A stretch of DNA of 64,000 bases from Flavobacteriales bacterium (GTDB taxonomy: Bacteria > Bacteroidota > Bacteroidia > Flavobacteriales_F > PHOS-HE28): contig JASGIM010000003.1 of the NCBI GenBank assembly GCA_047601855.1, positions 725,761 through 789,760 on the forward strand, given 5' to 3'. Position numbers and translations under genes: made by a program. Below are positions 4,209 to 46,078 of the stretch, in pieces (position 1 is the first letter of the stretch; each line of letters starts with the position of its first letter). The notes under the pieces were generated by a model that worked only from the letters and a program-made list of their open reading frames with translations, did not search any database and was not told where the DNA came from.

Positions 4209-4687
4209 GAAGCCCTCACGGCACGAACACCACGCGGCGGCCGCTGTCCATGGGGCGGTCCCACACGGCCTGCACGTCGCGCAGCGGCACCACCTCCGCA
4301 TCGACGGTGAGGATGCCTTGCGCCGCCAGCGCGAAGAGCTTCGGGAAGGTCTCGGCCAAGTGGGCGGGTGACATGCTGCCGCCGCCGCTGCCCATCAGAT
4401 CGATCGCAGAGCTGCGCAACGTACCGCCCCGCAGCTGGATCGTGGGGGCCGGCCATCTCGCCGATCTGCACGATGCGCGTGCGGTGCGGCGTGCAGGCCG
4501 TGGCCCGTGAGCGCGTGCAGCAGGGCCTCCATCGGCGGTCCCCACAGGTAGTCCAGCACCACATGGAGCAAATATCCGCAGATGTCACAGATGACGCAGA
4601 TGGATGCCAATGCCCTGCTTGCCACGTATTCATCTGTGTCATCGGCGCCATCTGCGGAAAAGGACCCTGCGGGCTACTTTCGCCACC

Positions 4688-16360: not shown

Positions 16361-16704
16361 GATCAGATGATCAGATAATGAGGTGATCAGATAATGCGCT
16401 CCTTGACGTCCTCCTTGTCACGGTGAGCTTGCCGAACCATGTCACGGTGAGCTTGCGTGCCGACGCCGAAGCGCCTTGGCGTAGGCGTCCGAACCGTGTC
16501 CTTCGTCCATCGCTGTCATAGTGGGCTTGCCGAACCATGACGTCCCCTTCTGTCATGGCGGCCTTGAGCCGCAGTCGCAAGTAGGAGCCATCCGAGATCG
16601 CCCGCTCCTATTTGCGACTGCGGCTCAAGGCCGCAGTGACAACGTACTCAGAGGGCGAGATCGGACGATCATCTCATTTTCTCATCATCTGATCCTCTGA
16701 TCGG
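16361..16704. mobile_element. MITE-like element (~344 bp) with GATCAGATGATCAGA-type terminal inverted repeats; it contains REP-like units and a 21-bp perfect hairpin
   Basis: Left end gatcagatgatcagataatgaggtgatcagataatg. Right end gatcatctcattttctcatcatctgatcctctgatc (inverted). Internal ggccttgagccgcagtcgcaa...ttgcgactgcggctcaaggcc hairpin at about 16557-16632. The right TIR encodes the last codons and stop of the GT2 gene. Confidence 0.6.
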
Positions 16705-27158: not shown

Positions 27159-27316
27159 GATCAGATGATCAGAAAATGAGATGATCAGATGATGGAGCTT
27201 CTGATCATCTCAAGCTCCCGCAGCGGTCCCCGCCTCGGGACCCTGCGGTCCTGGGATGGTATGAGAAGATCAGATGATGGGGTTTCTGATCATCTCATTT
27301 TCTGATCATCTGATCG
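27159..27316. mobile_element. MITE-like element (~158 bp), same TIR family as the 16361-16704 element
   Basis: Left gatcagatgatcagaaaatgagatgatcaga. Right tctgatcatctcattttctgatcatctgatc, its exact reverse complement. It abuts the stop of the phosphoesterase gene and supplies the ...IR-stop codons of the HMG-CoA lyase gene. Confidence 0.65.
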
Positions 27317-28181
27317 AAGAAGGGAAGACCGTGCCCGCCTGCTGCACCGAGCGGTCCAGTTGGGCCAGATCGAGGCCTGTGCGGATGTTCCGCGCCTCGA
27401 GGTCGCGCACGAAAAGCTCCATTGCGAGGTTGCCCACGAGGTCGTCCTCGGCCATCGGGCAGCCGCCATACCCCTTCAATGCGCCGTCGAAGCGGCGGCA
27501 ACCGGCCTCCCAGGCCGCATCGGTCTTGGCCTTCCAGTTGTCGAGGCGGGCATGCAGATGCGCGCCGAAGCGCACCTGCGGCATGGCGGGGATCAAGGTC
27601 GCAAAGAGGTAGCCTACATCCTCGGGCCTGGCCACTCCCACGGTATCCGCAAGCGAAATGGTGCGCACGCCCAGTTCGCTCACTAACCGTTCGGTCCAAT
27701 GCAGCGCCACGTCCGCATCCCAAGGGTCGCCGTACGGATTGCCGAAGGCCATGCTGATGTAGACCACGAGCTCCTTCCTGCCTTTCCGCGCGATGTCCGC
27801 GATGCGCTGCGTGCGCTCCCAACTCCCGGCGATGCTCGTGTTGGTGTTGCGGTGCTGAAAGGTCTCGCTGATGCTGAAGGGGTAGCCCAGCTGGTCCACC
27901 ATCGCATGGCGGCATGCCTCCTCCGCGCCGCGCTCGTTCGCCACGATCACCAGCAATCTGCTGCGCGTGCCGTCCAGGTCGATGCGGTGCAGCACGTCGG
28001 CCGTGTCGGCCATCTGCGGAATGGCCTTGGGGCTCACGAAGCTGCCGATGTCGATCGTGTGGAAGCCCACGCGCAGCAGGCCGTTCAGGTAGTCCACCTT
28101 CGTATCCGTGGGGATGAAGGCGTGCAGGCCCTGCATGGCATCACGCGGACATTCGATCAGTTGCACTTCCGGTCCTTCCAT
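27306..28181 (-). CDS. Hydroxymethylglutaryl-CoA lyase
   Basis: 291 aa. DRE-TIM metallolyase pattern [11 protein letters not shown]...[23 protein letters not shown]...[13 protein letters not shown]...GAHLHA typical of HMG-CoA lyase. Confidence 0.85.
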
Positions 28182-29365
28182 CGCACATAGGCCTGGTTGA
28201 TGCGCTTCAGCAGCGCGGGTCCTTCATAGATGAGCCCGGTGTATACCTGCACGAGATCGGCACCGGCGTCCAGTTTCTCGATCGCCGCTTCGGCGCTGTC
28301 GATGCCACCCACGCCGATGATGACGATGGGCCTGGGCAGGCGTTGGCGCAGGTATCCCACCACTTCGGTGCTTCGCTTACGGACTGGAGCGCCGCTCAGG
28401 CCACCGGCACCGAGGGCATCCACTTCGCGCCTGGGTGTGCGCAATCCTTCACGCGAGATGGTGGTGTTCGTCGCGATCACACCGGCGATGCCGCTCTCCT
28501 TCACCACGGGAACGATGTCGTCCAACTGCTCGTTCGTGAGGTCGGGAGCGATCTTGAGGAGGATGGGCTTGGGGGGATGGTGAATGATGAATGGTGAATG
28601 GGGAATGGCGAATGGTGAATGGTGAACTGCGCCTCCGTTCGCTTGTTCCCCATTCACCATTCGCTTCTCACCATTTACCAGTTCCTCCCCGACCTCCTTC
28701 AGCCTCGACAGGATCGCCACTAACGGCCCCTTCTCCTGCAACGCCCGCAGGCCCGGTGTGTTCGGACTGCTCACGTTCACCACGAAGTAGTCCACCACGG
28801 GATGCAGCGCCGTGAACGCCTTCACGTAATCCTCCACCGCCTGCTCGTTGGGCGTCACCTTGTTCTTGCCGATGTTGCCGCCGACGATGATGCCCGGCTT
28901 GCGCTTCCGCAAGCGTTCCACGGCCGCCGCCACGCCCCCGTTGTTGAAACCCATGCGGTTGATCAGCGCGCGATCGGGCTTCAGGCGGAACAGGCGGGGC
29001 TTTTCATTGCCGGGCTGCGCCACGGGCGTGAGCGTGCCCACCTCCACGAAGCCGAACCCGATGCGCGCCAAGGCCTCCACGTGCTTCGCGTCCTTGTCCA
29101 TCCCGGCCGCCAGGCCCACCGGACCGGGGAAACGCAGGCCCATCACCTCCACCCCCGCGGTCTTCGGGGGACGGCTCCCTCCTGCCAGCACCAGCGCACC
29201 CGGGATGTGCTTCGCCATCTCCAACATGCGGAAGGTGAACGCGTGGGCACGTTCCGGTGGGAACAGGAAGAGCAACGGACGAAGGAGACCATACATCGGG
29301 GCGACGAAGGTAACCAGGGCGAAGAGGCGTTCGGGGCTGCCTTCCAACGCTTGTAGAAACTGCAT
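28157..29365 (-). CDS. pyrD: Dihydroorotate dehydrogenase (quinone), class 2, with an in-frame ~35-aa repeat-derived insertion
   Basis: [18 protein letters not shown]...[13 protein letters not shown]...RMGFNNGG...IGKNK...[11 protein letters not shown]...IAPDLT...IATNTT. The extra segment [35 protein letters not shown] is absent from typical PyrD. Confidence 0.85.
28565..28675. repeat. Palindromic GAATGGTGAATGG-rich element inside the pyrD coding sequence
   Basis: gaatggtgaatggggaatggcgaatggtgaatggtgaa ... ttccccattcaccattcgcttctcaccatt. The perfect inverted arms gaatggtgaatggggaa / ttccccattcaccattc form a long hairpin. The reading frame is preserved. Confidence 0.65.
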
Positions 29366-29758: not shown

Positions 29759-31126
29759 TTACTCCCAGAAGGTCACTTTGAACTCTACGCGGCGGTTCTG
29801 CGCACGGCCCGCGGCGGTGTTATTGTCGGCCACCGGCATGGTCTCGCCATGGCCGAAGCTCTTCAGGTGCTTGGCGGCAACGCCCTTGTTCTCGAGGTAG
29901 GTGCGCACGGCAGCAGCACGGTCCTCGCTCAGCTTCATATTCTTGGCGTCGTCACCCTGGCTGTCGGTGTGGCCGTGGATCTCCAAGTCGTAGCTGGGGT
30001 TCTCCTGCATCACCTTCACCACTTGGTCGAGGATGCCGTAGCTCTCTTTCTTGATCGTGGACTTCCCGGTCTCGAACTTGATGCCGGTGAGCGCACGGGC
30101 GAACAGCTTCTTGGTCTCCTCCTTCACCTCGGGGCAGCCGCGCATGCTGGCCACGCCGGGCACGGTGGGGCACTTGTCCACGTTGTCGGCGATGCCGTCA
30201 CCATCGGTGTCGGGGCAGCCTTGCATGCTGGCGGGACCGGCTTGGTCCGGGCAGGCGTCCAAGGCATCGGTGATACCGTCACCATCGCGGTCGGGGCAGC
30301 CTTGCAGGGCGGCGAGGCCGGCCACTTCGGGGCAGCGGTCGTCCTTATCGGGGATGCCGTCACCGTCCGTATCGGGCTCGGGGTGGATCACCACGCTCAC
30401 GCCATCGATGTAGTAGTAGGCGCGCTGGTTGTCCGCGCCTTGAATCACTTTGGTCTTCTCCATGCCAGCGGCCGGAAAGGCGCCGATCACCATCACTTTT
30501 TCAGTGCCGTCCGCGGTGAAGGTGCCCTTCACTTCGGTCCAGTTCTGCTTGTCGTTCACCACCGTGCTGGTGGATACCTGGGGCTTCTCGGCCAGGAAGT
30601 GGCGGTGCTTGTAAGCCAGCGGGGCGGCGCAGAAATAGGCACCGAGGCCGCTCACGGCGCGGTCGCTGCCGTTGGCCAGTTTCACGCGGTAGAGCACATC
30701 GTACTGCTGACCGGCGGTGAGCGCGCTGCCCAGGTCGATCTGCATGTACTCGCTGTAGTTCTGGTAGGCCGGCACGAACACGTCCTGCTTGCCGTCCAGG
30801 ATGCGCTTCAGGTTCTTGCGCTGATCGTCCTTGTAGGCTACGAACCCGGCGTAGTGCTCGCCGTCGAAGGCGCTGGTGCCGGTGCCCAGTTCATTATCAG
30901 GAATGCCTACCGTGCTGGCACAGGCATCCTTGGTGAAGACGTCGCAGCTGCCGGCGTTGGCGTTGGACCAACCGGTGGCGCGGTTGAGCTCATCCCAGGT
31001 CTTGATAGGCTTGGAAACCTCTTCAAAACCGGCATTCTTCACCAGGTTGGGACCCGCCGCTTGCTGGGCCATGAGCCCCGCGGACGTGATCGACCCGGCC
31101 AGAAAACAGGCGTATTTGATGTTCAT
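29759..31126 (-). CDS. OmpA-family protein with thrombospondin type-3 (calcium-binding) repeats
   Basis: Signal peptide MNIKYACFLAGSITSAGLMAQ. Repeated DTDGDGIPDKDDRCP / DRDGDGITDALDACP / DTDGDGIADNVDKCP. C-terminal OmpA domain ...IEIHGHTDSQGDDAKNMKLSEDRAAAV...GRAQNRRVEF. Confidence 0.8.
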   Translation of the reverse strand: MNIKYACFLAGSITSAGLMAQQAAGPNLVKNAGFEEVSKPIKTWDELNRATGWSNANAGSCDVFTKDACASTVGIPDNELGTGTSAFDGEHYAGFVAYKDDQRKNLKRILDGKQDVFVPAYQNYSEYMQIDLGSALTAGQQYDVLYRVKLANGSDRAVSGLGAYFCAAPLAYKHRHFLAEKPQVSTSTVVNDKQNWTEVKGTFTADGTEKVMVIGAFPAAGMEKTKVIQGADNQRAYYYIDGVSVVIHPEPDTDGDGIPDKDDRCPEVAGLAALQGCPDRDGDGITDALDACPDQAGPASMQGCPDTDGDGIADNVDKCPTVPGVASMRGCPEVKEETKKLFARALTGIKFETGKSTIKKESYGILDQVVKVMQENPSYDLEIHGHTDSQGDDAKNMKLSEDRAAAVRTYLENKGVAAKHLKSFGHGETMPVADNNTAAGRAQNRRVEFKVTFWE

Positions 31127-31354
31127 GGTTCGGTCAGGTTTGGTTCGTGCTTCGCTTTGGACGGGGGCTATTCCAGGGGTCACAAGAGGGTGGGACCCCA
31201 ATAATGCCATTCCCGGCGGCGAAGGTAATGAGTGTGGCCCACTTGGCCTCTTTCCTTGATCAGGCCTCCTGCGCTTCTTCCAACGCTCCGATGTGGATAC
31301 CGCACGGGAACGATGGTCCTTGCGGCCTTCCGGCGCACCGGAAGCCGCCCGTGG

Positions 31355-45723: not shown

Positions 45724-46078
45724 CAAGCGGCGCAAGCTACGCGCAGGAGCCCCCATCCAAGCCGCGCGGTCCATCCGCAGATGGCGCAGATGACACAGAG
45801 GTTCCACCTACGGCGGACTTTATGGTATTGGGCTGGCAGGTTGTCGGCCTGCTATCTGTGTCATCTGCGGATGTTTGCTGTTCAGCATTAGACCTCTTTC
45901 ATAATTCCCCAGAAGTGTCACGTCGAGCGAAGTCGAGACGCTAATGCGCTTTCGATCACGGGCGTTCATGTCTCGACTTCGCTCGACAGGACAGAAGGAA
46001 CGTATAGAGGATGAATTACGAAAGAGCTCTATTGACGCGGTCGATGCCTTGATGCTAGGCAGAGATGGCCGCGGTGGG

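Follow-up and report, generated by a model that had tools for sequence, protein, structure and literature searches.

Rickettsia palindromic elements (RPEs) are inserted in frame into housekeeping genes, and ten families of about 100-150 bp with dozens of dispersed copies per genome have been described (Ogata et al. 2000, as summarized in PMC10969869). Heptamers are an over-represented class of long simple sequence repeats (LSSRs) in bacteria, usually explained by slippage, and pairs of inverted heptamer arrays able to form stem-loops are known in Xanthomonas, according to Mrazek et al. (2007). Here, a heptamer-repeat hairpin is described that lies in frame within pyrD, the gene of the pyrimidine-synthesis enzyme dihydroorotate dehydrogenase (DHODH), of a Flavobacteriales bacterium (assembly GCA_047601855.1). 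The analyzed window is the whole 64,000-nucleotide stretch of contig JASGIM010000003.1 from 725,761 to 789,760 (forward strand), and all coordinates without a locus number refer to it. Loci from other genomes carry L numbers and proteins carry P numbers.

By analogy, the RPEs would be the closest described phenomenon to the pyrD hairpin. RPEs are likewise short hairpin repeats that lie in frame in unrelated housekeeping genes and are translated as an extra peptide where the fold permits. They differ in their conserved consensus and encoded peptide, their many copies, and their occurrence in Alphaproteobacteria, and are likened here by description only, with no sequence relationship expected. 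In contrast, the pyrD hairpin is built of tandem heptamers, is found at a single locus in 64 kb, belongs to Flavobacteriales, is shared by a clade, and appears to evolve in place with a drifting unit. Tandem 7-nucleotide (nt) units of variable copy number are also found in known heptamer simple sequence repeats (SSRs), i.e., the cyanobacterial STRR, the LSSRs, GGGAATC of Xanthomonas and Nostoc, and TAACTGA of Beggiatoaceae, Cyanobacteria, and Bacteroidetes, and arrays of GAATGGN are present in the phyla that carry these SSRs. With 7.1 head-to-tail copies, the pyrD array exceeds the three units from which a heptamer SSR is counted. Most known arrays lie between genes, and coding regions hold fewer than expected, whereas the pyrD array and its inverted copy are translated in an essential enzyme at a clade-conserved locus. 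Transposable elements of the miniature inverted-repeat type (MITEs) and repetitive extragenic palindromes (REPs), such as Correia, ERIC, Nezha, and the GTAG/CGTC-tagged REPs, are also small, non-coding inverted repeats, of which occasional in-frame intragenic copies are known. The pyrD hairpin does have inverted arms, but these are internally tandem-repetitive, pair in multiple registers, and show neither a target-site duplication nor defined termini. REPs are high-copy extragenic palindromes of 20-40 bp with a GTAG/CGTC tag and an associated RAYT, and assignment as a REP was rejected for an intragenic element of about 100 bp that occurs at a single locus in the window with no visible GTAG/CGTC end. 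On these likenesses, the hairpin would fall within two known categories, the RPE-like in-frame palindromes and the heptamer SSRs.

Probably, the hairpin was acquired anciently and has persisted in a permissive loop of PyrD by slippage, stop avoidance, and arm-to-arm correction. It had been predicted from the sequence as a hairpin-forming element at 28565-28675, and these coordinates proved correct within a few bases, with arms that are exact reverse complements. Its parts are as follows.

28577-28626, plus strand: long arm, ATGGTGA in 7.1 copies (Tandem Repeats Finder, TRF); on the coding strand the 3' arm (TCACCAT)n, stop-free in all frames
28627-28644: apex or spacer, CAAGCGAACGGAGGCGCAGTT on the coding strand, peptide QANGGAV, loop of the minimum-free-energy fold
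28645-28680: short imperfect arm, on the coding strand the 5' arm GTAAATG GTGAGAA GCGAATG GTGAATG GGGAAC (inverted-repeat search, codon view)
28589-28605: exact arm GAATGGTGAATGGGGAA, 17 nt
28646-28662: exact complementary arm TTCCCCATTCACCATTC, 17 nt

TRF reported 28577-28626 on the plus strand with period 7, consensus ATGGTGA, 88% matches, and a score of 79, and called a period of 21 at 28638-28680. The segment 28645-28680 is an imperfect inverted copy of the heptamer run at 28577-28626. The longest inverted pair (28592-28627 and 28645-28680) comprises 36 nt with 83% complementarity and 17 nt between the arms, and several shifted registers of arm-to-arm pairing are possible because both arms are periodic. 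With up to two mismatches, GAATGGTGAATGG matched the 64-kb window nine times compared to 1.58 expected matches, a number reached in 0 of 100 shuffles, and eight of the nine matches fall within the pyrD element. The RNA of the coding strand folds at -61.3 kcal/mol compared to -36.4 +/- 3.7 kcal/mol for shuffled sequences (z = -6.7), and none of 200 shuffles was as stable. An intrinsic terminator was considered and rejected, as the transcript after the stem reads CCAUCCCCCCAAGCCCAUCCUCCUCAAG, without a U-run. In the insert-free locus L209, the corresponding position holds GCGGCCGGATCCGTT (AAGSV), a suggestive likeness to the apex CAAGCGAACGGAGGCGCAGTT that is too short to be used.

The gene and the insertion point were delimited by Pfam, by alignment with relatives, and by comparison with solved structures.

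28157-29365, minus strand: pyrD open reading frame (ORF), 402 codons, intact (Pfam DHO_dh, homolog alignments)
28574-28678, minus strand: in-frame insert of about 35 codons, V230-P264 (PDB alignment gap, anchor spacing, codon comparison with insert-free L209)
28721-28741, minus strand: upstream anchor LQEKGPL, start of the helix preceding the insert (helix H189-212 in the model)
28541-28570, minus strand: downstream conserved block, beta strand after the insert, (near-)invariant in the 49-sequence alignment (E245-249 in the model)
27306-28181, minus strand: HMGL-like gene (Pfam HMGL-like, E = 5.5e-26), with 25 nt of overlap (28157-28181) between its start and the pyrD stop

The pyrD product matched PF01180 (DHO_dh) with 272.6 bits over a cut-off of 27 (E = 4.7e-81) and the PDB entries 8ofw, 7ut5, and 1f76 with E = 1e-79 to 1e-81, with the enzymes of M. 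tuberculosis, A. baumannii, and E. coli among the homologs. The host gene is a class 2 (quinone-dependent) DHODH. Its ORF runs 23 codons (29297-29365) upstream of the start used by NCBI. The NCBI protein P0001, from a 1.65-Mb contig of a metagenome-assembled Flavobacteriales bacterium, is 100% identical with 379 amino acids (aa), its start at Met24 agrees with PDB alignments of DHODH that begin near residue 24, and Met24 at 29296 is likely the true start, giving 379 aa. All relatives examined keep pyrD and the HMGL-like gene in synteny, and the compared pyrD genes are therefore orthologs.

Solved PyrD structures aligned in two blocks only, at query residues 18-223 and 266-395. Loop length was measured as the spacing between the anchors LQ(E/D)K.PL (upstream) and (K/R)P(I/L)LLKIAPD (downstream). 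This spacing is 67 aa in the PyrD of the window. Every anchored metagenomic locus of the more distant Bacteroidota (52-59% identity) has exactly 34 aa, and the insert thus adds 33 residues. The intact ORF, the gap in the PDB alignments, and the added residues bear out the prediction of an in-frame element of about 35 residues between conserved PyrD blocks, and alignment with relatives placed the insertion point between the LQEKGPL anchor and the ILLKI-strand block.

An AlphaFold2 model built on a 49-sequence alignment reached a mean predicted local distance difference test score (pLDDT) of 84 and a predicted template modelling score of 0.85, with a pLDDT of about 50 over model residues 221-240. 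The DHODH fold is kept in the model, which matched E. coli DHODH (7t5k) in Foldseek with a target-normalized template modelling score of 0.90. The preceding helix extends to model residue 212 (ORF residue 235) and is followed by coil to residue 244 and then by the ILLKI strand, so that the insert is predicted to form a helix extension and then a disordered surface loop. Helix-to-strand loops of a (beta/alpha)8 barrel lie on the face opposite the catalytic face. The DHODH of Plasmodium falciparum carries a stretch of about 28-30 residues (STYNEDNK...DAKDN) after ...NIMNDE, at the same junction as the insert of the window, i.e., between the helix downstream of SSPNTPGLR and the ...VKLAPDL strand. 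Residues 384-413 of this enzyme are described in the literature as a disordered loop that was removed to obtain crystals, and the loop is absent from crystallization constructs. It differs from the bacterial insert in being eukaryotic and of Asn/Lys-rich low complexity, is not encoded by a palindrome or heptamers, and is of independent origin.

Relatives were represented by the 120 closest PyrD clusters, which are nearly all from uncultured Flavobacteriales and share 71-80% identity with the window protein, except for P0001, which is the window's own protein. Loop spacing ranged from 32 to 78 aa, with 34 aa in 46 clusters, 32-38 aa in 67, at least 39 aa in 53, and at least 50 aa in 39. All examined orthologs are intact ORFs. 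A frameshift suspected in L151 was dismissed, as its ORF is intact with a K-Q variant in the anchor region. Most loop expansions are heptamer hairpins that share one codon register. Type A loops have GAATGGT/ACCATTC-like arms, drifting towards ACCAATC and ACCCATC, and were found in the window, L121, L201, L203, and L205. An intermediate type, GCGAATG/CATTCGC, occurs in L122, and type B loops (GGCGAGT/ACTCGCC) occur in L204, L206, and L207 with folding energies of -59 to -72 kcal/mol (z = -4.3 to -7.5). Written in a rotated register, the units read TGGTGAA in the window, L121, and L201, TGGCGAA in L122, and TGGCGAG in L204, L206, and L207, so that the two ends of the series are two transitions apart.

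Each change of the unit is mirrored by the complementary unit in the opposite arm, and RNAalifold on seven orthologs gave double changes (AU to GC or UA to CG, in either direction) in 6 of 17 predicted pairs. The inserts of the window, L121, L122, L201, L204, L206, and L207 have one codon register, x-N/S-G-E-x-R-M/V-V/A-N/S-G-E...HSP(F/L), as well as an irregular second unit in the 5' arm, and apex sequences are similar in some inserts, e.g., L201 and L204. The shared register would be explained most simply if types A and B descended from one ancestor and then changed in concert. The original prediction implied an insertion private to this genome; judged by the alignments, the insert is not a recent private insertion, being shared in register with many orthologs at 72-80% identity. 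Of the period-7 arrays found by TRF in 387 kb of clade loci, 12 out of 13 lie inside the pyrD loop, which argues against a high-copy dispersed family, at least in the sampled neighborhoods. The only period-7 array outside pyrD is intergenic, (GACTCCC)x11.9 at 15208-15293 of L205. On a loop-masked neighbor-joining tree of 119 clusters, the presence of the insert required at least 22 changes compared to 33.7 for random labels (minimum 28), so that phylogenetic signal is present but turnover is rapid.

As 7 and 3 have no common factor, any three perfect GAATGGT units in a row put a TGA into each of the frames, once per 21 nt. The complement ACCATTC is stop-free in every frame and encodes TIHHSPF. 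The short arm of the window reads GTA AAT GGT GAG AAG CGA ATG GTG AAT GGG GAA, in which the irregular second unit avoids an in-frame TGA. Among type A loops, the stop-free arm was the only one that TRF called as a long array (7.1, 7.6, 7.6, and 13.6 units, with 100% perfect units in the 7.6-unit array of L205), and the stop-prone arm stays short with an irregular unit. The type B unit GGCGAGT is stop-free on both strands, and both arms were detected by TRF in L204 and L206 with 4.4 and 4.9-5.6 units. Copy number is polymorphic, with arrays of 3.7-13.6 units among orthologs. The proteins P0003 and P0005 are 99.5% identical and differ by exactly one TIHHSPF, i.e., 7 aa, 21 nt, or three units. 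No frameshifted pyrD allele was seen among the orthologs, although no systematic search for one was made. Stop avoidance and 21-nt indels indicate that the segment is read by the ribosome, since an element removed from the RNA or protein would not need such constraints.

These observations are consistent with a mechanism in several steps. A heptamer array and its inverted copy would have entered or arisen in the codons of the helix-to-strand loop in an ancestor of the uncultured Flavobacteriales clade, and the hairpin would since have been inherited and remodelled in place. It would be transcribed and translated, with the first arm lengthening the preceding helix and the rest forming a disordered loop rich in His, Ser, Pro, and Gly. 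This loop would face away from the flavin mononucleotide (FMN)/quinone site of the barrel, and the enzyme would therefore tolerate the insert. Replication slippage would add and remove units, of which only changes of 21 nt (three units, 7 aa) would survive. Selection against in-frame stops would keep the (GAATGGT)n arm short and irregular, and the stop-free (ACCATTC)n arm would expand. As GGCGAGT is stop-free on both strands, it would give symmetric, near-perfect hairpins. Intrastrand template switching, or repair in the hairpin, may correct one arm by the other and so keep the arms complementary as the unit drifts. Quasipalindrome correction by template-switch mutagenesis (Ripley model) brings imperfect inverted repeats closer to perfection. 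It is a mode of mutation, not a family of elements, and would explain why the arms of the pyrD hairpin change in step. We infer that the insert behaves as tolerated selfish or neutral DNA, and no cellular function is assigned to it.

The PyrD loop is also a sink that retains unrelated repeats in other species. Arrays of the octamer GATCAGAN occupy the same loop in L208 (10610-10649), L141 (3658-3689), and L129. They are translated in frame into the peptides DQMIRRSDHRTIRP and DQKISGSEDRKMRS, and the same unit is found in the arms of intergenic palindromes of the window. Other units in this loop are of the CCCTCAA type (L138, L150), GCGGCNA (L146), and GACAACC (L145). A unique, near-perfect 70-nt hairpin without tandem units was found in L130 (3613-3702), with -68.6 kcal/mol and z = -7.5. 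L130 matches L122 in its flanks and in the overall length of the loop, with the heptamer core replaced by unrelated sequence, which suggests that one hairpin replaced another at this site. A short ATHHSQL stretch in L123 looks like a scar left by a deleted hairpin.

Heptamer arrays of this kind also occur outside the clade. A scan of the GTDB representative genomes for GAATGGNGAATGGNGAATGG (three GAATGGN units; only this unit was scanned) gave at least 120 loci. The matches listed include Cyanobacteria, Bacteroidota, Chloroflexota, Planctomycetota, Mesorhizobium, Rhodanobacteraceae, and others, with the source genome not among them. Most of the matches listed are intergenic or apparently just upstream of gene starts, and few are truly intragenic; apparent in-frame matches within the first residues of long stop-to-stop frames are likely 5' of the gene. 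In L008 (882-979), a Caldilineaceae metagenome-assembled genome (MAG), a perfect (GAATGGC)n hairpin with 24-nt arms of 100% complementarity lies in a YfhO-like membrane protein. In-frame inserts were further found in the porphobilinogen deaminase (HemC) of a Chitinophagaceae MAG (L023; ...VNSE...SPFTIHHSP) and just before the S-adenosylmethionine-binding motif of PrmC in a Bacteroidetes MAG (L069; HHSPFTI). A protein search with (HSPFTIH)6 returned 28 matches, all of them short hypothetical ORFs (37-74 aa) without Pfam domains. Long translated arrays in real enzymes thus appear to be rare, with the search being insensitive to short or variant arrays. Intergenic palindromes without a gene inside were also observed in other Bacteroidota. 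L028 (2690-2935) has (GAGAATG)n arms separated by 180 nt, and L094 (2166-2587), where the site lies between convergent genes, has GAATGGN arms separated by about 370 nt.

Further palindromes with tandem-repeat arms were observed in the window and in relatives. Small genes of the PD-(D/E)XK_3 family (PF13366, 'GxxExxY') are flanked in relatives by inverted arrays of 8-10-nt units (CACGGAG/CACGGAT).

L206, 11985-12516: PD-(D/E)XK_3 cassette
L125, 4922-5440: PD-(D/E)XK_3 cassette
L139, 3245-3696: PD-(D/E)XK_3 cassette
L205, 11268-11887: PD-(D/E)XK_3 cassette
L124, L129, L130, L138: PD-(D/E)XK_3 cassettes just downstream of pyrD

They lie in the pyrD-HMGL or HMGL-phosphoesterase intergenic spaces, and the same sites are empty in L207 and L208. 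The flanked genes look like mobile cassettes with tandem-repeat arms. A literature search on 'GxxExxY' cassettes found nothing relevant, and no PD-(D/E)XK_3 gene was found in the window or linked to the GAATGG arms in L028 or L094. In the window, a gene-less nested palindrome of 157 bp with arms of GATCAGAT octamers lies at 27159-27315 between the metallophosphoesterase and HMGL-like genes, at the intergenic site that holds a PD-(D/E)XK_3 cassette in L206, L125, and L139. A second GATCAGAT-armed element at 16361-16702 has an interior of about 270 bp, with a long palindrome at about 16558-16640 (GGCCTTGAGCCGCAGTCGCAAGTAGGAGC/GCTCCTATTTGCGACTGCGGCTCAAGGCC) and a direct repeat of GTCACGGTGAGCTTGC. 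The GAATGG repeat had been predicted to belong to a family other than these GATCAGAT elements, and its sequence does differ from them. A hairpin at 4579-4656 has arms of 9-nt tandem units (CAGATGACA/TCATCTGCG), and a short CAGATGACA array occurs at 45778-45799. Units of 7, 8, and 9 nt thus share the tandem-repeat-arm architecture in the window. At 29759-31210 on the minus strand, the translation reads as an OmpA-family-like protein with repeated Asp-rich DGDGI.D motifs that resemble thrombospondin type 3 repeats; 2.4 copies of an 81-nt tandem repeat (30186-30376) encode these motifs.

The hairpin could alternatively be a non-autonomous, MITE- or REP-like member of a dispersed family of tandem-arm palindromes, for which the loop is a recurrent target, e.g., by preference for existing hairpins, so that species were hit independently. 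This alternative is possible, if rather doubtful. It draws on the five or more unrelated repeat sequences in the same loop of different species, on the GATCAGAT units that form the arms of intergenic palindromes in the window, and on the apparently mobile PD-(D/E)XK_3 cassettes with inverted tandem arrays in the clade, which are present or absent at orthologous intergenic sites. GAATGGN-armed palindromes in other Bacteroidota and other phyla, both intergenic and in frame, and the patchy phyletic pattern point the same way. Several of these observations weigh against vertical inheritance from a single origin. Patchy presence needs many losses, some of them back to exactly 34 aa, or recombination, and the single origin rests on short, repetitive sequences. 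Repeated hot-spot insertion of a mobile element with a fixed layout could give the same register. The arrays and hairpins of GAATGGN elsewhere, some in frame in real genes and some on more than one contig of a genome, fit a dispersed and possibly mobile class. However, when the codons were compared with those of other orthologs, including the insert-free L209, the boundaries showed neither a target-site duplication nor a distinct terminal sequence. GAATGG arrays occur at a single locus in 64 kb, and the 387 kb sampled from relatives contain hardly any beyond pyrD. The codon register and irregular second unit shared by types A and B are simplest as common descent, and no transposase or PD-(D/E)XK_3 gene is linked to GAATGG arms in the loci inspected. 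Of the earlier proposal of a tolerated MITE or REP insertion translated as a surface loop, the tolerated loop stands, being translated and predicted to be disordered; the MITE/REP label is unproven, given the single locus in 64 kb, the lack of a target-site duplication, and the 12 of 13 arrays within pyrD. A more specific version appears unlikely, in which the pyrD hairpin would belong, without a gene of its own, to a class of mobile palindromes not yet described that have tandem arms of 7-10-nt units, whose autonomous forms are the CACGGAG/CACGGAT-flanked PD-(D/E)XK_3 cassettes and which homes to existing hairpins, with phase variation of pyrD by 7-nt slippage as a secondary possibility. If true, hairpin homing (to intergenic terminators and rarely to genes) would explain the repeated colonization of the PyrD loop and the neighboring intergenic sites by different units, and mobility in general would point to an undescribed tandem-arm element family linked to PD-(D/E)XK_3 genes.

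A function under selection, as an RNA structure in pyrD translation or mRNA stability, by heptamer phase variation, or as a role of the His-rich loop, is a distinctly improbable explanation. Upkeep of the hairpin could reflect selection on RNA or DNA structure rather than neutral persistence, as the hairpin potential persists in orthologs whose arms changed on both sides. Some tracts are also long and perfect (7.6 units with 100% in L205), and 7-nt slips of single units are expected to be commoner than triple ones. Yet most of the 120 closest clusters are without a substantial insert (46 at 34 aa, 67 at 32-38 aa), and arrays are one-armed or hairpins weak in L203, L138, L146, and L150 (z from near 0 down to -2 for L138, L146, and L150). 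The loop varies extremely in both length and sequence, disorder is predicted for its peptide, the hairpin is not followed by a U-tract terminator, and the orthologs showed no frameshifted allele, though none was systematically sought. The original prediction also raised an intein-like or self-splicing element, and the interruption of a conserved enzyme without a break in the frame would suit excision from the protein as an intein or mini-intein, or from the transcript as a self-splicing intron. Inteins have Hint-domain splicing blocks, nucleophilic residues at their junctions, and at least about 130 aa. Against this, the insert is too small with 33-35 aa, Pfam found DHO_dh only and no Hint domain, and the junctions L|V...P|P are without the Cys/Ser/Thr and His-Asn residues. 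The best Rfam hits were miRNA-precursor models at 19-30 bits, below gathering scores of 60-97, with no group I or II intron among them, and stop-codon avoidance and 21-nt indels point to a segment read by the ribosome, with constraints on frame and stops visible in dozens of orthologs. Removal by splicing is thus hardly credible. The sequence comes from a MAG, in which repeats and palindromes invite errors; an artefact of assembly or sequencing is nevertheless equally far-fetched, as homologous in-frame inserts occur at the same codons in many independent assemblies (NCBI, JGI, ENA, Logan). The anciently acquired hairpin, remodelled in a permissive loop, is favored over these alternatives.

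The pyrD hairpin represents a clean natural experiment on the survival of selfish or slippage-prone DNA within an essential gene. The reading frame sculpts the repeat, in that arms without stops grow, stop-prone arms remain short, and mutation turns the unit into one that is stop-free on both strands, with complementarity kept. A highly permissive insertion site is mapped in class 2 DHODH, which is also the site of the dispensable loop in a malaria drug target, and may aid protein engineering or tagging. For annotation, pairs of palindromic peptides in Bacteroidota proteins (VNGE...HSPF, RVASGE...HSPLATR) should be taken as translated DNA hairpins and not as domains.

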